The notes under the pieces are model-generated. The model searched no databases. It saw only the letters and a list, made by a program, of their open reading frames with translations, and was not told the origin of the DNA. DNA of 64,000 nt from a virus (Duplodnaviria > Caudoviricetes), in IMG/VR virus record IMGVR_UViG_3300035499_000522, positions 32,001 through 96,000 of that record; one strand, 5' to 3'. Made by a program: the position numbers and the translations under genes. Of this stretch, positions 3,267-40,647 are shown piece after piece. Every line of letters begins with the position of its first letter. The first letter of the stretch is position 1.

Positions 3267-3345
3267 TAAGCATTAACAGCAATTTTAATATAATTTTAAA
3301 GAAATTTTTAATAATAATAGAAAATATAGAATATTAAATGCTTAG
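3267..3345 (+). ncRNA. CAGCAA-stem RNA, copy 1 (Y-RNA-like candidate)
   Basis: TAAGCATT-aa-CAGCAA ... AATGCTTA-G terminal stem, same architecture as the other four copies. Confidence 0.65.
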
Positions 3346-3378: not shown

Positions 3379-3455
<77 letters not shown>

Positions 3456-3460
3456 CTTTA

Positions 3461-3640
3461 AAGACACATGGGTATTGCAGCAAAAAATCAAATTATAATA
3501 GATAAGTAATACTAATGATAATTTGTTTCTTTGTTTAAAAGAAGATAGGTTATTATAAATGAAGCGTTTGATGGATTAAATACTCTTTGAAGTTTTTCGA
3601 TTAATCCAAATGCTTGCCAGAGGAAACTTCCGGTGTCTTG
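3461..3640 (+). ncRNA. CAGCAA-stem RNA, copy 2 (long, multi-hairpin)
   Basis: AAGACAC...gggtatt-g-CAGCAA ... aatgctt...GTGTCTT-G. Internal hairpins caaattat/ataatttg and ggattaa/ttaatcc. Confidence 0.65.
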
Positions 3641-3647
3641 TTTTTAT

Positions 3648-3723
3648 CGAGATGTAAGTCAATTGGTAGACGGCTAAGTTTGGGGCTTAGTAGCTGGAGG
3701 TTCGAGTCCTCTCATCTCGACCA
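3648..3723 (+). tRNA. tRNA-Pro(TGG)
   Basis: Cloverleaf, ctaag-ttTGGgg-cttag, CCA. Confidence 0.92.
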
Positions 3724-3726
3724 TAT

Positions 3727-3803
3727 GGGCGATTACCCGAATAGGCATAGGGGCTAGCCTTAGAAGCTAGTATGTTAGAGTTCAAATCTCTAATCGCCTA
3801 CCA
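3727..3803 (+). tRNA. tRNA-Leu(TAG anticodon) with short variable loop
   Basis: GGGCGAT/ATCGCCT acceptor, ctagc-ctTAGaa-gctag, A73, CCA. Confidence 0.85.
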
Positions 3804-3845
3804 TTGTATTATTTAGTAAATTGTATAATTTACAAAATCTTTACA

Positions 3846-4074
3846 TCGCTAGCTTAAAGTAGCGGATAGCTTTAAGACCCTACTATGAGGGGGATAGAAT
3901 AGTTGTGAAGCAGTTTGTACTTTTCTGTGTCTGTGAGCCAACAAACAGGCTTAACAAAAATTGAAAAGGGAGTTAGAAAGTTGGTTTTCTACTAAACGCC
4001 ATAAGTTGAAAAGAAACCACAAACGTTTGGGGCGGTAAGCTGCCTCTCCGATAAAATGGAGAAAGTGCTTACAA
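3846..4074 (+). ncRNA. Candidate structured ncRNA between tRNA-Leu and tRNA-Lys
   Basis: No ORF and locally GC-richer. Stems cttaaag/ctttaag, ttgtgaagca/tgcttacaa, tggttttct/agaaacca, ggggcgg/ctgcctc, tctcc/ggaga. Confidence 0.45.
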
Positions 4075-4078
4075 TTAT

Positions 4079-4154
4079 GCTCATGTAGTTCAGTTGGTAG
4101 AACAACTGACTTTTAATCAGTAGGTCGTGAGTTCGAGTCTCATCATGGGCACCA
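4079..4154 (+). tRNA. tRNA-Lys(TTT)
   Basis: Cloverleaf, actga-ctTTTaa-tcagt, CCA. Confidence 0.93.
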
Positions 4155-4160
4155 ATTTAA

Positions 4161-4263
4161 GGGGTTGTACTCAAGTGGTTGTACTCAAGTGGTTTAAGAG
4201 AGCTGTCTACTAAACAGCTAGTTCAGCAATGGAGCGTAAGTTCGAATCTTACCAATCCCGCCA
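4161..4263 (+). tRNA. tRNA-Ser with ACT anticodon and a 14-nt tandem duplication in the D-arm region
   Basis: GGGGTTG/CAATCCC acceptor, G73, long variable arm, gctgt-ctACTaa-acagc. ggttgtactcaagt is repeated at 4163-4176 and 4177-4190. Confidence 0.75.
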
Positions 4264-4264
4264 C

Positions 4265-4357
4265 GGAGAAGCATTATAGGGGCTATGACTGCTAGCCTTA
4301 GCCTTTGATAGCAGCAGTAAGGACGTCCACGCAATAACCAAAGGGTTCCGCTTCTCT
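4265..4357 (+). ncRNA. Candidate ~93-nt structured RNA directly after tRNA-Ser
   Basis: Closing stem ggagaagc/gcttctct, inner ggcta/tagcc and cctttg/caaagg, followed by a U-tract. Confidence 0.45.
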
Positions 4358-4363
4358 TTTTAT

Positions 4364-4392
4364 TTGTAAAATTTAAAAATTTATGTTATAAT
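4364..4392 (+). promoter_or_regulatory. sigmaA-type promoter for the suppressor-tRNA transcript
   Basis: TTGTAA-17 nt-TATAAT with extended TG. Confidence 0.7.
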
Positions 4393-4406
4393 TAATATGT
4401 AATCAA

Positions 4407-4472
4407 AAGGCATTTACAGCAAATTTTAAAGGAAATAATATAATAGCTTTAATTATTTATTAAAATGCCTTG
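4407..4472 (+). ncRNA. CAGCAA-stem RNA, copy 3
   Basis: AAGGCATTT-a-CAGCAA ... AAATGCCTT-G. Confidence 0.7.
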
Positions 4473-4479
4473 TTTATTT

Positions 4480-4570
4480 TGCGGAGTTGGCAAGCGGTTA
4501 AGCCTCAGGTCTCTAACACCTGCACCCCTTAGCGATAAGGTCCAGAGTTCGAATCTCTGCTCCGCAACCA
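4480..4570 (+). tRNA. Amber suppressor tRNA (anticodon CTA), probably Gln-accepting, with a long variable arm
   Basis: TGCGGAG/CTCCGCA acceptor (U1-A72), caggt-ctCTAac-acctg, variable hairpin cctta-gcga-taagg, TTCGAAT T-loop, CCA. Confidence 0.9.
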
Positions 4571-4578
4571 ATTTTTTA

Positions 4579-4667
4579 AAGATGCTAACAGCAAATTATT
4601 CTGGTTTAATAAAACTTATTTGAATGAAAACTTAATTTTCATATAATAAAAATATTTTGGCATCTTG
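4579..4667 (+). ncRNA. CAGCAA-stem RNA, copy 4
   Basis: AAGATGCT-aa-CAGCAA ... GGCATCTT-G. Confidence 0.7.
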
Positions 4668-4674
4668 TTAATAT

Positions 4675-4759
4675 GGGGGAATCGCATAGTGGCAATTGCG
4701 GCGGACTGTAAATTCGCTACCTTATGGTTTCCTTAGTTCGAGTCTAAGTTCCCCCACCA
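4675..4759 (+). tRNA. tRNA-Tyr(GTA)
   Basis: Cloverleaf with long variable arm, ctGTAaa loop, CCA. Confidence 0.92.
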
Positions 4760-4765
4760 ATATAT

Positions 4766-4841
4766 GAGGTTTGTAGTGTAATGGTTAGCACGTCAGTTCG
4801 TGGCACTGATAGAAAGAGTTCAAATCTCTTCATTCCTCCCA
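4766..4841 (+). tRNA. tRNA-His(GTG), atypical
   Basis: G-1:C73, tcagt-tcGTGgc-actga. Has C33 and two U-U mismatches in the acceptor stem. Confidence 0.75.
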
Positions 4842-4849
4842 CTAATTTA

Positions 4850-4978
4850 AAGGCACTTTCAGCAATATTAATTAGATATTTTAAGGAATTTTGTACATGG
4901 GTTCAATTCCCATTGCCGCTGCAATTAGTGGCGGTATAGCTTAGAGGTAAAGCAAAAATAATATACTAAAGTGTCTTG
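4850..4978 (+). ncRNA. CAGCAA-stem RNA, copy 5, with a circularly permuted tRNA-like module (YrlA-like Y RNA)
   Basis: AAGGCACTTT-CAGCAA ... AAAGTGTCTT-G. Inside: T-arm atggg-TTCAATT-cccat (4897-4913), loop-closed acceptor tgccgctgc/gtggcggta, D-arm ta-gctt-agaGGta-aagc. Confidence 0.85.
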
Positions 4979-4985
4979 TTTATTT

Positions 4986-5062
4986 GCTTGTGTAACTCAA
5001 ATGGCTAGAGTACTTCTTTCATAAGGAAGAGGTTGTAAGTTCAATTCTTACCACAAGTACCA
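4986..5062 (+). tRNA. tRNA with CAT anticodon (elongator Met or Ile2)
   Basis: cttct-ttCATaa-ggaag, CCA. Confidence 0.85.
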
Positions 5063-5065
5063 AAA

Positions 5066-5376
5066 CGGCTAGTAGCTGTGAATATAGGCGGAGTTAAATT
5101 AAGAAGAAAGGATTGAATTATCTCCTTTCTACCCAAATCTTCGTTAGGGTGATAACATGAGAGCTGCTCCTATGGCTGAAGGCTCTTTACTAGCTTCGTA
5201 ATTTTGAGGAATGAGAAACCTGCTCTCAATGGTTGAAATGATATATACCGAGAGCCGTGCTAATACGTATTAGACAAAATTATGACGTTACTTAAATAAG
5301 CGTGAATATTTAAGGTTTCTTATCTCAGTGCTTCATGGTGCGGCAGTCGCAGATAAGAATCAAAAAACCATGAAGC
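5066..5376 (+). ncRNA. Candidate structured ncRNA region with three folded domains
   Basis: Closing stems gctagta/tactagc (5068-5194), tgagaaacct/aggtttctta (5212-5322) and gcttcatggt/accatgaagc (5330-5376). No ORF. Confidence 0.5.
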
Positions 5377-5408
5377 TTTACATACAACTTTAATTATTTT
5401 ATATATAT

Positions 5409-5484
5409 TGGCATATAGCCAAGCGGCAAGGCAACGGATTTTGACTCCGCCATTACGAAGGTTCGAATCCTTCTATGCCAACCA
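5409..5484 (+). tRNA. tRNA-Gln(TTG)
   Basis: TGGCATA/TATGCCA acceptor, U1-A72, ttTTGac loop, CCA. Confidence 0.93.
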
Positions 5485-5607: not shown

Positions 5608-6261
5608 ATGGAAAAACTTATAACAATGCTTGCCATGGTGTTAGCTCTAATAGCTTGCTCATTTACTACTATACCAACGCCCGCAAAGGATGAAGCTATT
5701 CCAATTATTCAAGAAGGAATTGAATATTAGTCTATTGATAATTTTAAATTAATAGAATACAAAGCTAAACAAGAGGTAAAAATAGAAACTCTTTCAATAG
5801 CTAAAGAATTAATAGAACTTCCAAATTGTGCTACTAATATGTATACTTTTATGGATTATAAAACTATTACAGATTCTACTTCTAATCAATGGAAACTTCA
5901 ATATGACAATAATGTATCTACTAATGAAAATGGTATTAGAATTTACACAAAAGACGAAATTGAATATTATATAGTGGCATTAGGTTCTGTGTGTGGGACT
6001 GATATAGGCGTCGCCTATAAAGTAACACTTGATAATGGCTCAGAATTTAATATTATTATGGGCGATTGTAAAGCGGGTGTTTATTATGGACACTCAACTA
6101 TTAACTACGATGGTTACTATTGTGTAAATATGATTGAATTTATAGTAAATGAAAATTATGTTCCTAATAGAATAAAAAATTTAGGTACATATTCTGGATT
6201 AGAATTTTTTAATGGTAATATTGCATCTATTGAAAAATTAGGTAAAATATGGGAAGCGTAA
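5608..6261 (+). CDS. Secreted or membrane-anchored hypothetical protein (one in-frame TAG)
   Basis: AAGGAG RBS and ATG at 5608 giving the signal peptide MEKLITMLAMVLALIACS, in frame with ORF 5839..6261. Confidence 0.75.
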
Positions 6262-6412: not shown

Positions 6413-7936
6413 ATGAATACTTTTATGAATGAACTTGAAAAGACTACTAATTTTACTACAACCACTAATGGTGCAACTGCTCATAAGTCTACCTTGAGCA
6501 AGGTATATGATTTGTTTGCTTTTGGCGGTGCATATCGTAATCGCAGCGAAGCAGATTGTATTAATTTGTTTAAGAATGCTTATGAGGAAGATTCCTCTAT
6601 GGCATTGAAGTGTCTGTTCTACTTGGTTGATGTACGCGGAGGTCAGGGGGAGCGTAGATTCTTCAGAGTGTGCTTCGCTTGGCTTTGTAATGAGCATCCT
6701 GAAGTTGCTTTCCGCCTTGTAGATAAGATTCCTTTCTTTTCGAGATGGGATAACATTCTTTATGCAATTCCTGATTCTGCTACTTATGTTAAGAACGAAG
6801 CTTATGAAGTAATTAAGACTCAGCTTGCTCTTGATATGGATTCAAAGACACCTAGCCTTATGGGTAAGTGGCTTCCTTCAGAGAATGCTTCCGCTCAGAA
6901 AACTAAGAATGAGGCTCATAAGCTTAGAAAGTATCTTGGTTATTCTCATAAGGAATATAGACAGATTCTCTCTGCTTTGAGAAAAAAGATTAATGTTCTT
7001 GAAAGACTTATGTCATCTAATCAGTGGGATAAGATTGAGTTTGATAAGATTCCTTCTAAAGCTGGTCTTATTTACAAGAACGCATTTGCAAGAAATGATA
7101 TAACATCAGAAAGATATAAGGCATTTGCTGCAAACAAAAATACAAAAGTTAATGCTTCTACACTTTATCCTTATGACGTTGTAAAAAAGGCAATTGACTT
7201 TAATTACAGTTATGGCTTTTATGGTAATTCAGAAACTGATAGAAATATGATTAATAAGTATTGGGAAAATCTTCCTGATTATTTGAACGGAGCAGATTGC
7301 AAGATGCTTTGTGTTTGTGATACAAGCGGAAGTATGCGTGGAGGTGCTGCCGCTGCCCCTATTAATGTTGCGATTGGATTATCCATGTATTGTGCAGAAC
7401 GTATAGGCGGTCCTTTCAAGAATCATTATATTAGTTTTTCATCTCGTCCTCAGCTTATTGAAACAAAAGGTGTAGACTTTGTAGATAAGGTCAAGAGAAT
7501 ATATGACACAAATCTTTGCGAAAATACTAACCTTGTGGCAGTATTTAACCTTTTAAAGGATACAGCATTGAAAGCTAATGTAAAGAAAGAAGATATGCCC
7601 GAAACAATAGTTGTAATCTCTGATATGGAAATTGATGCAGGTACAAGTCCTTGCTGCTGGCGTAAATACAACGATTTTAAACGCTGGACAACAAAATCAG
7701 CATCAACTGAAATGGAAAAGATAAGAGAAGAGTGGGCGGCAGCTGGCTTAACGCTTCCTAGAATCGTGTATTGGAACGTTAATGCAACTACCGACATAAT
7801 TCTTGATTCTGGTCCTGATGTAACCTTTGTGTCAGGTGCTTCCCCCATAATATTCAAGTCGGTCATTACAGGCAAAACTGGAATCGACATTATGCTTGAA
7901 GTTCTTTTGAATGACAGATACGCAAATATTTTTTAA
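6413..7936 (+). CDS. DUF2828-family TROVE-like plus vWA protein (Ro60-like RNA-binding protein)
   Basis: T.NGA...ST...LF N-terminus, D.RGG.GER, KWLPSE, LYPY, MIDAS motif DTSGSM and ISDME. Own promoter at 6309-6337, no TAG codons. Confidence 0.85.
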   Translation: MNTFMNELEKTTNFTTTTNGATAHKSTLSKVYDLFAFGGAYRNRSEADCINLFKNAYEEDSSMALKCLFYLVDVRGGQGERRFFRVCFAWLCNEHPEVAFRLVDKIPFFSRWDNILYAIPDSATYVKNEAYEVIKTQLALDMDSKTPSLMGKWLPSENASAQKTKNEAHKLRKYLGYSHKEYRQILSALRKKINVLERLMSSNQWDKIEFDKIPSKAGLIYKNAFARNDITSERYKAFAANKNTKVNASTLYPYDVVKKAIDFNYSYGFYGNSETDRNMINKYWENLPDYLNGADCKMLCVCDTSGSMRGGAAAAPINVAIGLSMYCAERIGGPFKNHYISFSSRPQLIETKGVDFVDKVKRIYDTNLCENTNLVAVFNLLKDTALKANVKKEDMPETIVVISDMEIDAGTSPCCWRKYNDFKRWTTKSASTEMEKIREEWAAAGLTLPRIVYWNVNATTDIILDSGPDVTFVSGASPIIFKSVITGKTGIDIMLEVLLNDRYANIF

Positions 7937-16631: not shown

Positions 16632-17048
16632 ATGGGTCTTGATAATGGTATAGTTCTTAAAACAAAAGCTAAGATTAGTCATATTTCTTTGCCAAAAGTT
16701 ATAAAAGAAGATTGGCTTAATAAGGATTATGATAAGTCAATTGAAGTTTGCTATTGGCGGAAATGTTGGGGCATAAGAAATGAAATTATATATGATATTT
16801 TGCAAATCAATGAAGAAGCATTATATGATTATTCATTGACAATTGAAAATATTAATGATATAATTGATATATTAAAAAAATATGCTTATAATAAAAAGTA
16901 TTATGAAGATAATGCTCGTTCAATATGGGAATTTGAAGAATATAATGATAAACTTAAAGAAGATATCAAAAGGATTAAATGGCTTAAAAGATATATGAAA
17001 TATCATAAAGGCAATATTGAAAAAGTAACTTTTTATGATAGCTATTAA
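16632..17048 (+). CDS. Conserved phage hypothetical protein
   Basis: MGLD...EVCYWRK...FYDSY pattern, strong RBS. Confidence 0.75.
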   Translation: MGLDNGIVLKTKAKISHISLPKVIKEDWLNKDYDKSIEVCYWRKCWGIRNEIIYDILQINEEALYDYSLTIENINDIIDILKKYAYNKKYYEDNARSIWEFEEYNDKLKEDIKRIKWLKRYMKYHKGNIEKVTFYDSY

Positions 17049-17059
17049 AGAAAGGAAAA

Positions 17060-18244
17060 GTGGTAGATATGCTTAATAAAGATAATGAGAGAATGCTTGC
17101 TTACACCGCAAGAGTAAGCTGGGTACAGCCTATCGAAGGTGCTGATAACATTGAACTAATAGGCATTAACGGTTGGACTTGTATTGCTAAGATTGGAGAG
17201 TTCAAAGAGGGAGACATATGCGTTTATTTTGAAATTGATTCTAAGCTTCCTGAAGCACCTTGGTCTGCGTTTATGGCATCTAAGCACTATAAAGTAAAGA
17301 CTATGAAGCTTGGTAAATTCAAGGTTATATCTCAGGGTCTTGCACTTCCTGCTGCCGCATTTGATATTGATATTCCTCTTGAAGAAAATGTTGATATGAC
17401 TAAAACACTTGGTGTTACTTATTCTATTGAGGAAGATAACAAGAGAAAAGCTAATTCTGCTGATAAGTATGCGGCAATGACTCGCCGCCATCCCAATATC
17501 TTTAAGCGTCCTATTGCACGTTGGCTGATGAAGCGGGAATGGGGCAAGAAGCTTATGTTCTTATTCTTTGGCAAGAAGAAAGAAAACAAGACTTCATTTC
17601 CTACACACTTTGAATACGTGAAGAAAACAGACGAAGAAAGAATTGAGTGCGTTCCACATCTACTCAAAAATAAAACAAAACTCATAGCCTCCGAGAAGCT
17701 CGATGGCACAAGTACAACATTTATTTTGGAACGTAAGGGCAAAAAGAAATTTGAATTTTATGTACTTTCTCGTAATGTAAGACAGCTTACGCCTGACCAG
17801 AAATGCTATCACGATGATAATATCTATTGGAATATGGCTTTTAAATATAATATTGAACAGCATTTGAAGAATTACCTTAATGAAAATCCTGAACTTAAGT
17901 ATGTATGTCTTCAGGGCGAATCTGTAGGAAGCGTACAAGGCAATCCGCTCAAACTTAAGGAAGATGATTTTTACGGCTTTAATTTTATTCGTTCAGATGT
18001 AGGAAGAATTTCATCTCTTGAAGGTAAGAAAATCTTGGAATCTTGGGGAATGAAGTGGGTTCCTATTATCTCAACAGAATGGGTTAATCCTGATACTATG
18101 GAAGAAATGAAGAAACTTGCTACTGGTAAGTCTTTGGTTAATCCAGAAGTATACAGAGAAGGAATTGTATATAGAAGTGAAGAAGATAATAAACTTAGCT
18201 TTAAATCGGTTTCAGCTGAATACCTTTTGAAGCACAATATCTAA
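17060..18244 (+). CDS. ATP-dependent RNA ligase (Rnl2/DRB0094-like, N-terminal OB domain)
   Basis: PIEGADNIE, SQGL, KTDEERI, motif I EKLDGTS, QGE, REGIV, SFKSVS. Confidence 0.9.
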   Translation: MVDMLNKDNERMLAYTARVSWVQPIEGADNIELIGINGWTCIAKIGEFKEGDICVYFEIDSKLPEAPWSAFMASKHYKVKTMKLGKFKVISQGLALPAAAFDIDIPLEENVDMTKTLGVTYSIEEDNKRKANSADKYAAMTRRHPNIFKRPIARWLMKREWGKKLMFLFFGKKKENKTSFPTHFEYVKKTDEERIECVPHLLKNKTKLIASEKLDGTSTTFILERKGKKKFEFYVLSRNVRQLTPDQKCYHDDNIYWNMAFKYNIEQHLKNYLNENPELKYVCLQGESVGSVQGNPLKLKEDDFYGFNFIRSDVGRISSLEGKKILESWGMKWVPIISTEWVNPDTMEEMKKLATGKSLVNPEVYREGIVYRSEEDNKLSFKSVSAEYLLKHNI

Positions 18245-18257
18245 GGAGGAATTAATA

Positions 18258-18482
18258 ATGAAGAGAACAATTTGTATTTCAGACATTCGAGATATAACAA
18301 GTCTTTGCCATCAGGCACAGTCTATTAAGGGTGCAGTAGATGTATCCAAGGGTAAGTACTGCGTTGATGCTTGCTCGCTTATGGGTCTTCTTTCTATTGA
18401 CTTGTCAACAGGTGCGGACATAGAATACCCTGATGATGCGGCTAGTTTTGATAGCTTTTGCTCACTGTATGAAGTTAAGTAA
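18258..18482 (+). CDS. HPr-like protein
   Basis: VDACSLMGLLSIDL (Ser46 region). No recognisable His15 motif. Confidence 0.75.
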   Translation: MKRTICISDIRDITSLCHQAQSIKGAVDVSKGKYCVDACSLMGLLSIDLSTGADIEYPDDAASFDSFCSLYEVK

Positions 18483-18630
18483 TATAATATAGGACTAACC
18501 ACCCTATATTAACATATATTTTCACTCTTAAAAATAAAGTTACTATAAAGCAGTAACTTTATTTTTTTTATTTTTTATGTTATAATATATATGTAATAAA
18601 AAATAAGAAATATGAAAGAGGTTGATTAGA

Positions 18631-24265: not shown

Positions 24266-27200
24266 ATGGAAAGATATGATATTAATTCAATTGAATCTTT
24301 AACGACCTTGGAAGGATTTAGGCTACGTCCGCAAATGTATCTTGGAAGTAATGATATTGAAGGTACATATCAAGCGTTCAAAGAAATCCTTAATAACTCA
24401 ACAGATGAAAGTCTTGAAGGTTATGGTACTAATATTTATGTTACAGTAAATGAAAAAACAAATGAAGTAAGTGTTCTTGATGAAGGTAGAGGCGTTCCAT
24501 TTGGCATAAGAGAAGATGGCGAAAATGTCTTAGTTTCAGTTTATACTAAACTTCACGTTGGCGGCAAGTTTAATCATAAGAATTATTCCAATAGTGCAGG
24601 TATGAATGGTTGCGGCGGCAGTGCAGTTTGTGCAACCTCTTCTAAGTTTACTGTTGTTAGTTATAAAGATGGCAAAATGGCAACTGCGGAATTTGTAGAA
24701 GGAGTAAATACCTCTTATAAGGAAGAAAAGACCGACCATATAAATGGTACATATGTACGATTCACGCCAGATAAAAAGGTTTTTTCACTTGAAGAAATTC
24801 AGTATTCTTTTGATAGAATTTGTAAGGAAGTAGAAAATTCAAGTTTCTTTAATAAAAAGGTTAATTTCTATGTAACTAATGAAGAAACAAATGAAAAGAA
24901 ACATTATTATTCTGAGAATGGCATTGCAGACTTTATTAAAGACAAAGTTAAAAAGCCTTTAATGAAGAAGCCCATTATTTGTACGGCTAAAGATGAAGAA
25001 GATGAAATTGAAATAGCATTTATTTGGTCAAGCGATATTTCGCAGTCTTATGTTTTTGTCAACGGGCTCTTTTGTGTCGAGGGTGGAAGCCCTATAACGG
25101 GAGCTAAAACCGCCATCACAACTCAGTTTAAGAAGCTAAGCGGTAAGGAATTTGACCCAGAGTTGATAAGAAAAGGTCTTGTATATGCAATTAATTGTAA
25201 GGTTAAAAATCCTTCATTTGCAAATCAGACTAAATCAAAAATTAACAATCCTAATTTGAGAACTTTAGCTTCACAAGCATTTAAAGATGGTTTGACAATG
25301 TTTTCAAAGACACCAGATTTTAATGCTATTGTTGAAATGCTTAACAAGGTTCAGAAAGCGGAAGATGCCGCAGACCGGGCAAGAAAGCAAATTCTTGAAA
25401 CCGGTAAAGAAATTGAAAGAAATCAACATAAGAAGGTTTTTAATTCAGATAAATTAAAAGATGCGAAGAACTTAGGCAAAGATTCTGTACTCTTGATTGT
25501 AGAGGGAAATTCGGCTGCAGGAGGCATCGCTAATGCAAGAGATTATAAGAAGTACGGTATCTTGGCAGTAAGAGGTAAAATGCTTAATTGTATCCGTAAT
25601 AATGATGAAAAAATTGCACAAAATGAAGAGATTACGCTTCTTTTAAAAGCTATGAATATAGTGCCCGGTAAGTATGATAGTAAGAAGCTTCGATACGGGA
25701 AAATTGGCATCTGCACAGATGCAGATAGTGACGGTCAAAGAATAATGATGGCCGATGAAAAACTTTTCGCCTAACATCAAGGCGGGTAATATCTAAGAGA
25801 TATTGCTAACGGGGAAGCCTAAACTAAAATAGCATGGTAATCCCGTGGCAAACTTTTATTCTTTATATCTGTTTAATATATAAAGAATAATTGAAGCTGT
25901 ATCGACTATTCCCTAAGTCTTATGGGCAGGGAAGTAGGGCTGCTATTGATACGCAGCAGCATTTTAGGAAACGAATTGCTTTAAATGCCGAAATGGTTTC
26001 CTTTCTCATAAAGAGAAAGTAAAAGTTAGTCAGTGCTAATAGAAATATTAGATAAAACGTATCACATTGGGTTACTGGTGATGTCAGTTCTACGGTATTT
26101 AGCTCCTCAATTCTTGGAAGAGGGCAGATTATGCTGGCTCCGCTCACCACTTTATATAGTAAAAAATGGTAAGAAAGAAAGTTATTATTTCACAGATGAA
26201 GAAATGAATGCAGCAAGAAGTTCAATAACTGGTGAGGTGCAAAGAAATAAAGGGTAAGAGATAGTCTGGCCCTCAGATGTTTTTCCGCTTATCGGCGGGG
26301 TTAAAAGAATAAAATCTTTTAGCTAACGAGGTAGTCTAAATTTTTATTTTCTATTAAAAAATCTTGGTTAATTTAGGTTAACCTAATTTTAATAAAATTT
26401 TTATATAATAGAAAATAAAAACACGATAATCTCGTGGGAAGAAGGAGATTTTATTCAATGAGTATTGGAATTTATAAATTTGAGAACAAAATTAATGGTC
26501 ATATCTACATTGGACAAAGTTTAGATATTGAAAGAAGATATAAATAGCATATATACGATTCTAATAATTTAGATTCAAGGAATGGCTGCGGTGTAGATTA
26601 TGCAATTAATAAATATGGAATAAACAATTTTAATTTTTCTATTGTTGAATTATGTGAAGTAGAAAAGCTTGATGAAAAAGAGAAATATTGGATTTCTTTT
26701 TACAATTCTTTTGAAGAAGGATATAATAGAACTATTGGAGGAAAATCCCTTAGAGGAGAAGACCATCCTAGAGCACTCTTATCAGAAAAAGAAGTATGGG
26801 ATATTCGTGAAGAATATGCAAAAGGAACTCTTAGGAGTAAAGCAATAGCACCTTATATTGAAAAAGGATTTAGCGAAAGAAGTTTAATAAAAGTATGGAA
26901 TAATGAAACATGGATTGGCGTTCATAGTGATGTATATAATAAAGAAAATAAAGAAAAACATAAAAATCAATCTATACCCTCTAATTTTGTAGGAATAAAT
27001 AATGAACAAAGAGGATATTCAAAAGAAGAAGTAAATTTAATGTTAAATGATTATAAATCTGGAATGACTATTAATGCTATAGCTAAAAAATACCATCACG
27101 ATAATAATACAGTAAAAAAGTATTTATTAAATCCTAATTTTAAGCCAACAAATTCTTCAAATCAAGGTAGAAAAGTTAAAAATATTGAAACTCAATTAAC

Positions 27201-39573: not shown

Positions 39574-40647
39574 ATGTCATTTTCTTATAATAAAGATGAA
39601 ATAAAAGAAAACCTGACAATAGAGCAAATATATGATTTATTAGCAGAATTAGGAGCAGAACCTATTCTTAAAAATAATTTGATAGTTTCACGTACAATAT
39701 GTCACGGTGGCTCAAGTCATAAACTTTATTATTATGGAAATACCAACTTATTTCGTTGTTATACAGAATGTGATGAAGTATTTGATGTGTTTCAATTAAT
39801 TCAAAAGGTTAAGAAAGTGACGTTGCCGCAAGCTATTAAATTTATAGCAAATTTCTTTGGGATACAAACTCAAGATTTAGATTTTGATGAAGAACAAAGA
39901 TTAAAAGATTGGGAAGTATTCAATAATTATGAAAGAATAAAAACAATAGATGAACATAAACAAATAGTTGAATTTAAAATATTTGATAAGAGTATTTTAA
40001 ATAATTTACCTCAGCCGCATATTTTAAACTGGGAAAGAGAAGGAATATCATATGATGTTATGAAAAATGCGGGAATCGCCTATGACCCCTCAAACCAAGG
40101 TATTGTAATCCCGCATTATGATATAAATGGAAATCTTATAGGAATAAGAGAAAGAACATTAATACAAGAGGAAGAGCAATATGGTAAATATAAACCCGCA
40201 ATATTTAATGGCATAATGTATAATCATCCTCTTGGTTTTTCATTGTATAATTTGAACAATAGTAAAGACAATATAAAGATAATGAAAAAAGCTATTATAT
40301 TTGAATCGGAGAAAGCCACATTACAATATGCTAGTTATTATGGAATTGAAAATGATATTAGTTGTGCGTGCTGTGGCAGCTCAATAATTAATTATCAAAT
40401 TCAGTTGTTGCTTTCTCTTGGCGTTCAAGAAGTAGTTATTGCTCTTGATAGACAATATAAAGAGATTGGCGATGACGAATTTAAGCATTGGACTAAAAAG
40501 TTAGAAGGCTTTAATAAGAAATTTAAAAGCTTAGTAAATATATCTTTTATATTTGACAAAGAACATAACTTAGAATATAAGATGAGCCCAGTTGACGCAG
40601 GAAAAGATACTTTTTTACATTTATTTAAAGAAAGAGTGATTTTATAA
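39574..40647 (+). CDS. DNA primase
   Basis: TICHGG...CYTEC Zn domain, IPH, GIR.R, TOPRIM FESEK and ALD. Confidence 0.85.
   Translation: MSFSYNKDEIKENLTIEQIYDLLAELGAEPILKNNLIVSRTICHGGSSHKLYYYGNTNLFRCYTECDEVFDVFQLIQKVKKVTLPQAIKFIANFFGIQTQDLDFDEEQRLKDWEVFNNYERIKTIDEHKQIVEFKIFDKSILNNLPQPHILNWEREGISYDVMKNAGIAYDPSNQGIVIPHYDINGNLIGIRERTLIQEEEQYGKYKPAIFNGIMYNHPLGFSLYNLNNSKDNIKIMKKAIIFESEKATLQYASYYGIENDISCACCGSSIINYQIQLLLSLGVQEVVIALDRQYKEIGDDEFKHWTKKLEGFNKKFKSLVNISFIFDKEHNLEYKMSPVDAGKDTFLHLFKERVIL

Follow-up and report, generated by a model that had tools for sequence, protein, structure and literature searches.

The 64,000-nt stretch of viral DNA analysed here (the window) belongs to a 136.7-kb IMG/VR virus record; it is AT-rich and contains in-frame TAG codons. 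It harbors an array of ten tRNAs on the + strand (3379-5484), interspersed with RNAs that consist of a stem carrying the motif CAGCAA. The subject of this article is the fifth of these RNAs, located at 4850-4978 between tRNA-His and tRNA-Met(CAT), together with the gene of a 507-aa protein that starts on the same (+) strand at 6413, ~1.4 kb downstream of the RNA end at 4978. The interior of the RNA resembles a tRNA in circularly permuted order, and the protein is predicted to resemble Ro60. Hence, the pair is discussed herein as a likely counterpart of the bacterial Y RNA YrlA and its Ro partner.

Architecture of the RNA at 4850-4978

An earlier reading of the same letters (the original prediction) had described a T-arm, an acceptor stem, U8-A9, a D-arm, and an ATTTT/AAAAT pairing in this order. 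All these elements are present in 4850-4977 on the + strand when 4840-4985 is read, each with the coordinates collected in Table 1. The acceptor-like hairpin has a 7-bp core (4914-4920 paired with 4930-4936) that is extended to 9 bp by G73-C74 (4921-4922), which pair with GT (4928-4929). Since only G73-C74 follow the 3' strand in the 7-bp register, the window copy carries no CCA. A 7-nt anticodon loop is absent as well, its place being occupied by the internal loop and the terminal stem. Both absences had been predicted and are true of the window copy, with about a third of its homologs encoding N-CCA. The set of nucleotides that builds the tRNA elbow is complete, comprising U8, A14, G15-C48, G18-G19, A21, G53:C61, T54-T55-C56, and A58.

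Folded without constraints to its minimum free energy (MFE), the sequence again forms the outer stem and all three hairpins (T, acceptor, and D), with an energy of -36 kcal/mol (z = -4.3) that is reached by none of 200 shuffled sequences. A strict scan for a T-arm, a closed 7-bp stem, two nucleotides, and a D-arm with GG finds no site in the window other than this one, compared with a chance expectation of 0.013 hits per window (300 dinucleotide shuffles, both strands). The observation is confirmed as real and non-random. Judged from its sequence, the RNA is a non-coding molecule of about 130 nt with the shape of a circularly permuted tRNA.

At Rfam gathering thresholds, only tRNAs are reported here. 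In a narrow search, the best family for the RNA is the YrlA model RF02553 with 27.7 bits (E = 2e-4), and the related RNA of Mycobacterium phage LeBron reaches 39.8 bits. Positions 1-114 of RF02553 align end to end with 4876-4977, placing the T-arm, the closed acceptor stem, the D-arm, and a 4-bp anticodon-stem analogue in register. The YrlA-type architecture that had been proposed is thus borne out. The search with the YrlA model, which the original prediction had suggested, gave the full-length alignment but a score below the threshold of 69 bits.

Table 1. Coordinates of the RNA, its neighbors, and related features. Positions refer to the window unless a locus is named; x denotes pairing.
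Feature	Positions	Strand	Evidence
Terminal stem, 10 bp	AAGGCACTTT 4850-4859 x AAAGTGTCTT 4968-4977	+	sequence, MFE fold
CAGCAA motif, proposed protein-recognition element	4860-4865	+	28-29/29 homologs at each position
AT-rich 5' side of internal loop, weak V-arm-like hairpin	4866-4887	+	length and sequence vary among homologs
Anticodon-stem analogue, 5 bp	ATTTT 4888-4892 x AAAAT 4955-4959	+	pairing conserved, Levitt partner covaries
Variable loop GTAC, 4 nt; C4896 is nt 48	4893-4896	+	sequence
T-arm ATGGG/TTCAATT/CCCAT	4897-4913	+	cells of 29/29 homologs 100% paired; double changes in 4/5 pairs
Closed acceptor-like hairpin TGCCGCTGC/AATTA/GTGGCGGTA, 9 bp, no gap after T-arm	4914-4922/loop/4928-4936	+	
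U8-A9 (TA)	4937-4938	+	U8 in 29/29 homologs
D-arm GCTT/AGAGGTA/AAGC, carrying A14, G15, G18, G19, A21	4939-4953	+	D stem covaries; A14 29/29, G18 28/29
nt 26, AAAAT 4955-4959, 3' side of internal loop	4954-4967	+	sequence, YrlA-model alignment, pairing statistics
Terminal stem 3' strand plus invariant G after it	4968-4978	+	G in 29/29 homologs
tRNA-His, directly upstream of RNA	4767-4841	+	
tRNA-Met(CAT), 8 nt downstream of RNA	4986-5062	+	
CAGCAA-stem RNA copy 1, without tRNA-like module	3267-3344	+	
CAGCAA-stem RNA copy 2, large structured interior	3461-3640	+	
CAGCAA-stem RNA copy 3, R1 score 40.8 bits	4407-4471	+	
CAGCAA-stem RNA copy 4	4579-4666	+	
Sigma-70-like promoter, extended -10	4364-4392	+	consensus match only
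DUF2828+DUF7788 gene, 507 aa, predicted Ro60-like TROVE-vWA ring, proposed partner	6413-7936	+	Pfam, AlphaFold, Foldseek
tmRNAs of related phages	L026:2485-2739, L030:4448-4792, L032:5859-6209, L039:1032-1307, L042:3238-3518, L056:1380-1679, L070:3949-4258		ARAGORN

Conservation and covariation of the CAGCAA RNAs

For the family search, 85 viral loci encoding relatives of the 6413-7936 protein were fetched. A count of CAGCAA motifs with a stem behind them gives 277 on the gene strand of these loci versus 89 on the other, a strand bias that composition-matched hexamers do not display. A scan that is blind to CAGCAA and leaves out annotated tRNAs detects permuted tRNA cores 31 times on the gene strand and twice on the other; almost every one of them is enclosed by a CAGCAA stem, with closure 10-30 nt past the D-arm. 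The covariance model built in the present analysis, R1, yields 29 matches above 60 bits in the 85 loci, all on the + strand, with the window RNA scoring 82.3 bits. A pattern relying on the RNA alone (ACAGCAA, gap, GGTTCRANTCC, gap, TAG) retrieves 80 loci from IMG/VR, which hold 79 R1 matches of at least 44 bits. The second set of homologs, taken at E ≤ 1e-6, comprises 78 sequences (47-101 bits), 75 of them from these RNA-selected loci and three from Bacillus phage PK-3 and LeBron. In total, the homologs that R1 detects in viral contigs number more than 100, and further ones are detected in the cultured phages PK-3, LeBron, and wV8.

All four helices covary. In the first set (n = 29), 91.8% of the cells are paired versus 65.0% after shuffling, with a covariation score of 0.725 versus 0.205 and changes on both sides in 24 of 26 pairs; in the second set (n = 78), the values are 90.7% versus 59.3% and 0.829 versus 0.214, these pair counts leaning towards the model to which the alignments (A4 and A6) were fitted. 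The terminal helix covaries in both sets, as do all seven pairs of the acceptor core. Two features that the model does not treat as pairs behave alike. The Levitt pair is A15:T48 in 16 and G15:C48 in 13 of the 29 sequences, with no exception, and is Watson-Crick in 73 of the 78 sequences of the second set. The anticodon-stem analogue has on average 3.69 bp in the first set against a null of 1.46 (standard deviation 0.25), and 2.68 bp in the independent set against 1.09 (standard deviation 0.12). The original prediction had named loss of the T- and D-loop nucleotides among homologs as a finding that would speak against it. These nucleotides are retained, U8, A14, T54, T55, C56, A58, and G53:C61 each being present in 29/29 sequences and the T-loop TTCRA being invariant. 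The terminal stem is semi-conserved as AAGRC...GYCUU, and its 5' strand is followed by a near-invariant ACAGCAA.

An N-CCA is encoded right after the 7-bp acceptor 3' strand in 10/29 and 14/78 sequences of the two sets, which is far above chance. It is followed by a linker of 1-6 nt, as in L023:2922-3040, L062:6824-6943, and L085:312-451. Besides the permuted members, 18 CAGCAA stems in related phages enclose a tRNA-like sequence in normal order, for instance L001:141-253, L004:~3920-4035, L015:2157-2268, and L023:3938-4051. The two inserts checked, those of L001 and L004, score about 51-52 bits on the Rfam tRNA model. These inserts have AU-rich acceptor stems and no CCA, and apparent homologs vary in the anticodon (GCG, TCA, TCT). 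It looks as if a tRNA body were built into the CAGCAA family in a second way as well, without permutation.

For the strand that immediately precedes the variable loop, two pairing partners are available in close relatives (A4 alignment), namely a segment past the D-arm, which yields the anticodon-stem analogue, and an upstream near-copy of that segment, which yields a hairpin. The upstream hairpin (hairpin X) was considered as a conserved alternative pairing or switch and was dropped. The hairpin in 4866-4887 exceeds the null only in close relatives (4.38 versus 3.38 bp), and because hairpin X is only marginal in the independent set (3.48 versus 3.22), no switch is claimed.

Other searches delimit the family. 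With blastn, the array and the permuted core give only ordinary tRNA matches among GenBank phages, and the exact T-arm/acceptor pattern has no match in IMG/VR. In prokaryote genomes, the pattern mostly meets chance sites, with true members in ~10 of 80 loci, mainly contigs of metagenome-assembled genomes (MAGs) of gut Clostridia. True R1 matches occur in L238, a Promethearchaeota MAG contig, and in L294, a 182-kb contig of a Ruminococcus MAG. The MAG contigs with R1 matches probably derive from phages and offer a clue to the host range. A match to the Rfam family cow-rumen-4 in one locus was set aside as an unrelated hairpin of a 5' untranslated region.

The neighboring DUF2828 protein and its linkage to the RNA

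The protein encoded at 6413-7936 matches Pfam DUF2828 and DUF7788 with E values of 6e-29 and 9e-37. Its AlphaFold model has a mean predicted local distance difference test score (pLDDT) of 77 and a predicted template modeling score (pTM) of 0.72. A Foldseek search of the PDB gives 13 matches at E ≤ 0.001, down to 3e-7, and all of them are Ro60, Rsr of Deinococcus radiodurans, or the Ro60/TROVE protein of Thermus phage phiLo. The alignments run over the full length (540-600 columns) with a probability of 1.0 and a template modeling (TM) score of about 0.5. In the model, a ring of HEAT repeats is followed by a vWA domain, which is the arrangement of Ro60/TROVE-vWA proteins. The invariant residues D303, S305, and S307 are consistent with a motif of the MIDAS type (an adhesion site dependent on metal ions). 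The best reading of the predicted structure is that of a Ro60-like protein belonging to a divergent phage Ro60 clade.

The RNA and the gene occur together far beyond the window. A relative of the DUF2828 protein is encoded in 40 of 48 RNA-selected contigs and in 19 of the 20 with a completeness of at least 90%, compared with a base rate of 703 among 50,697 GenBank phage records. Wherever a locus holds both RNA and gene (20/20), the two share a strand at a distance of 190-5,700 nt, and the identity to the window protein in these 20 loci falls as low as 22-38%. The phages in which members or the gene are found belong to Firmicutes, Actinobacteria, and Proteobacteria as hosts, with Felix O1-like phages among them. 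In Bacillus phage PK-3, two full members (66 and 57 bits) precede the DUF2828 gene. LeBron carries a full tRNA-like member immediately after the gene, and Escherichia phage wV8 (Felixounavirus) one member of 47.8 bits ~1 kb downstream of gp47. Simple CAGCAA stems are seen in Staphylococcus phage 6ec (three in tandem directly after the gene) and in Enterococcus phage VRE9_3 (one just before it). The CAGCAA RNAs are, as far as sequences tell, a large and hitherto undescribed family of phage RNAs that travels with a Ro60-like protein.

Some annotations at these loci deserve mention. In wV8, the GenBank coding sequence gp048 ("hypothetical protein") overlaps the RNA on the opposite strand (L216:6339-6468), and in VRE9_3 an open reading frame (ORF) of 39 aa, likewise a "hypothetical protein", overlaps the RNA (L214:3888-3955). 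Such small coding sequences over CAGCAA RNAs are probably mis-annotations. In Listeria phage LP-124 (L094, 5001-11509), the DUF2828 gene has a tRNA array on one side and, on the other, genes coding for an RtcB-like ligase and a putative RNA ligase, a neighborhood that echoes the bacterial rsr-yrlBA-rtcBA operon. The record containing the window encodes no RtcB.

Within the window, the promoter-like sequence at 4364-4392 likely drives a unit of CAGCAA copies 3-5 plus the intervening tRNAs. The tRNA at 4480-4570 has a long variable arm and the amber-reading anticodon CTA, and in-frame TAG codons occur near it, such as 5729-5731 in the ORF 5609-6261; therefore, the phage appears to reassign TAG. 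A perfect 14-nt tandem duplication (GGTTGTACTCAAGT twice, 4163-4190) is found at the 5' end of a tRNA-Ser-like gene with the anticodon ACT, called at 4175-4263, where it would fall in or before the D-arm. Three segments within the tRNA array (3820-4075, 4264-4360, and 5063-5400) are ORF-free, GC-richer, and structured-looking, and have no Rfam match even at E ≤ 10. ARAGORN calls no transfer-messenger RNA (tmRNA) in the window; it does call tmRNA genes with tag peptides in the tRNA arrays of several related phages (Table 1).

Interpretation and comparison with known systems

YrlA is defined by the motif GNCGAAN0-1G, by the order of variable region, T-arm, closed acceptor stem, and D-arm with a covarying Levitt pair, and by a same-strand position no more than 4 kb away from Ro60 (Chen 2014, PMC4201824). 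The order is reproduced by the window RNA (variable region, T-arm, closed acceptor, D-arm, tertiary nucleotides, Levitt covariation), and so is the location (within about 4 kb, same strand), where the likeness of the neighbor to Ro60 is one of fold. In place of GNCGAAN0-1G, a near-invariant ACAGCAA is present. We consider it likely that the product of 4850-4978 is a Y RNA of the YrlA-like sort, serving a divergent clade of phage Ro60 and belonging to a large phage RNA family. The Y-like reading advanced in the original prediction gains support from the YrlA-type architecture, the neighbor with a predicted Ro60 fold, and the co-occurrence of RNA and gene. The latter suggests that the RNA is probably a binding partner of the Ro60-like phage protein.

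Several observations weigh against this assignment. The score of 27.7 bits is far under the RF02553 gathering threshold of 69, and at this threshold no YrlA is reported in 13 loci holding members. GNCGAAN0-1G, the canonical Ro-binding motif, is absent from 4848-4979, as had been noted from the start. Because of this score and the missing GNCGAA, the RNA is not a member of RF02553 by the Rfam criterion, in spite of its YrlA-like architecture. The Pfam match of the protein is to DUF2828 and not to TROVE, and a sequence-profile search of the PDB found nothing relevant. Listeria phage LP-124 possesses the gene with no R1 match within 5 kb, and a complete RNA-bearing contig (G045) has no DUF2828 match. 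Moreover, the gene adjoins tRNA arrays in many phages, and the linkage could partly be shared synteny. The lean of the pair counts towards the model belongs to the same side of the balance.

The last-mentioned synteny is central to the strongest rival, a free-standing tRNA mimic that acts independently of the Ro-like protein and merely shares a parking place with its gene at tRNA arrays. Such a mimic might divert, as decoy or sink, those host enzymes or defence toxins that read the tRNA elbow or the acceptor/CCA end, or might be a stable processing or insulator module of the polycistronic tRNA transcript. It would be freed by tRNA processing from its place between tRNAs, other CAGCAA stems in relatives hold normal-order tRNA-like sequences, the CCA encoded in 10/29 homologs points to recognition by tRNA enzymes, and many unrelated phages have their DUF2828 gene next to tRNA arrays. 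However, the RNAs of LeBron and 6ec follow the gene immediately, with no tRNA array between or around, CAGCAA stems directly flank the gene in loci L089 and L090, and motif and stem are kept across phages of Firmicutes, Actinobacteria, and Proteobacteria, which favors a phage-encoded reader over host factors. An independent mimic is, thus, unlikely.

The order T-arm, acceptor 3' strand, linker, acceptor 5' strand, D-arm is also that of permuted tRNAs and two-piece tmRNAs, and the RNA could accordingly serve translation, either as a rejoined permuted tRNA or as the charged tRNA-like half of a two-piece tmRNA. Weak matches to permuted-tmRNA models (14-16 bits), the CCA of some relatives, and the tmRNA genes of some related phages fit this idea. 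The permuted tRNA was rejected for want of a 7-nt anticodon loop, and the two-piece tmRNA for want of a tag reading frame, pseudoknots, G3:U70, and CCA in the window copy. G3:U70 is neither present in the 7-bp register of the window RNA nor conserved in homologs, the acceptor sequences vary so freely that no charging identity is conserved, and the D stem is a real one, unlike that of tmRNA. With ARAGORN calling no tmRNA and the scores far under the thresholds of 47-70 (tmRNA_permuted 14 versus 47), a role in translation is very improbable. Least credible of all is a functionless relic of a tandem tRNA duplication, in which the 3' half of one copy was joined to the 5' half of the next. Such a deletion would produce the permuted order, and close relatives repeat the 5' strand of the upstream hairpin after the D-arm; more than 100 homologs, however, keep every helix by compensatory change and all tertiary nucleotides across differing G+C contents and hosts, and this covariation refutes a pseudogene relic in practice.

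Under the favored reading of a YrlA-like Y RNA, the RNA would be transcribed with the phage tRNA array and released by processing of the flanking tRNAs, 3' processing of tRNA-His setting its 5' end and RNase P cleavage at tRNA-Met its 3' end. The stem with ACAGCAA and the 3' G would then form a putative docking site for the Ro60-like ring, as the co-occurrence suggests. The interior folds as a permuted tRNA body with a canonical D/T-loop elbow, which its conservation and covariation show. By analogy with YrlA, the tRNA module may stabilize or protect the RNA, or may recruit a tRNA-recognizing factor or nuclease to the ring. In relatives with an encoded N-CCA, RNase P cleavage into a two-piece, CCA-ended RNA is suggested. 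The window copy may stay closed and uncut, as reported for Salmonella YrlA, because its hairpin is closed by 9 bp and it has only G73-C74. In infected cells, the RNA would most likely act in RNA surveillance or counter-defence. A more specific model, which we offer tentatively and do not expect to hold in every part, takes the CAGCAA RNAs as dedicated subunits of a very widespread and as yet undescribed phage Ro60-like ribonucleoprotein in counter-defence or surveillance, whose tRNA module would be cut by RNase P to a two-piece CCA-ended RNA that recruits a host tRNA-recognizing enzyme or nuclease.

The literature offers a point of contact. A preprint on the Felixounavirus Bas63 reports that the Ro60-like gp130, encoded upstream of tRNA genes, counters the Ppl defence, and ventures the guess that Y RNAs may be among the "tRNAs" (bioRxiv 10.1101/2024.10.10.617714). 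An overexpression screen of LeBron found gp53, its DUF2828 protein, to be toxic and mentions no RNA. In the literature searched, neither a link between DUF2828 and Y RNAs nor any RNA partner for DUF2828 was found. Thousands of phage contigs from gut and rumen encode DUF2828 "RNA-binding" proteins, as do about 1.4% of the phage records in GenBank, and the present analysis adds a searchable RNA family (model R1, ACAGCAA-stem signature) with candidate RNA genes located in the culturable phages wV8, LeBron, PK-3, and 6ec. The full members map to about 26806-26935 of NC_012749.1 in wV8, about 40268-40393 of NC_014461.1 in LeBron, and about 18423-18547 and 16960-17090 of ON881243.1 in PK-3. The analysis thereby provides a direct route to a test of the published guess, in which the Ro60-like anti-defence protein of Felix O1-like phages would work with tRNA-like Y RNAs. 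If the sequence-based assignment is correct, tRNA mimicry by Y RNAs would occur in a second Ro clade as well, a divergent one whose recognition motif is different.

Among known systems, permuted tRNA genes of algae and archaea share the placement of the 3' half upstream of the 5' half. They differ in having a full anticodon arm and splicing-type circularization, whereas the window RNA has the CAGCAA stem instead. Two-piece tmRNA (RF04321, RF01851) likewise has a permuted tRNA-like domain, in which the acceptor 3' strand lies upstream across a short linker removable by RNase P. In contrast to it, the window RNA lacks an mRNA-like domain, pseudoknots, and G3:U70 and has a true D stem. The Yrl1/Yrl2 RNAs of phage phiLo (PMC12135203; PDB 9KOP, 9L5Y) are phage stem-bulge RNAs encoded beside the gene of a phage Ro60-like ring, the structure of which is among the top fold matches of the 507-aa protein. 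However, it was a CGAA motif that led to their identification, they are not reported to contain a tRNA-like module, and their protein is a canonical Ro60 homolog.

The closest parallel is YrlA itself (PMC4201824; bioRxiv 10.1101/312249), which Ro60/Rsr binds in vivo and which carries Psi55 and dihydrouridine. Common to YrlA and the phage RNAs are the pairing of the 5' and 3' ends into a terminal stem, the interior order of variable region, T-arm, closed acceptor-like stem, UA, and D-arm closed by an anticodon-stem analogue, the tRNA tertiary nucleotides with Levitt covariation, the presence of simpler stem RNAs alongside (like YrlB), and, in some species, co-transcription with tRNAs. The phage RNAs differ by carrying ACAGCAA and a 3' G and not GNCGAAN0-1G, by a partner that is a DUF2828/DUF7788 and not a Pfam TROVE protein, by D and T stem sequences that are not invariant, by being often multi-copy and interleaved in tRNA arrays, and by the N-CCA that about a third of the members encode genomically. 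For Mycobacterium smegmatis YrlA, RNase P cleavage and a CCA tail have been reported (PMC4201824), which makes a CCA-ended two-piece form plausible for the phage RNAs as well. Known Ro systems have several stem RNAs per locus, one of them with a tRNA module (Chen 2014, PMC4201824), and the window locus resembles them in both respects. Hence, the RNA at 4850-4978 is most fittingly classed with the Y RNA/YrlA kind, as a new and widespread variant attached to a divergent Ro60 clade.
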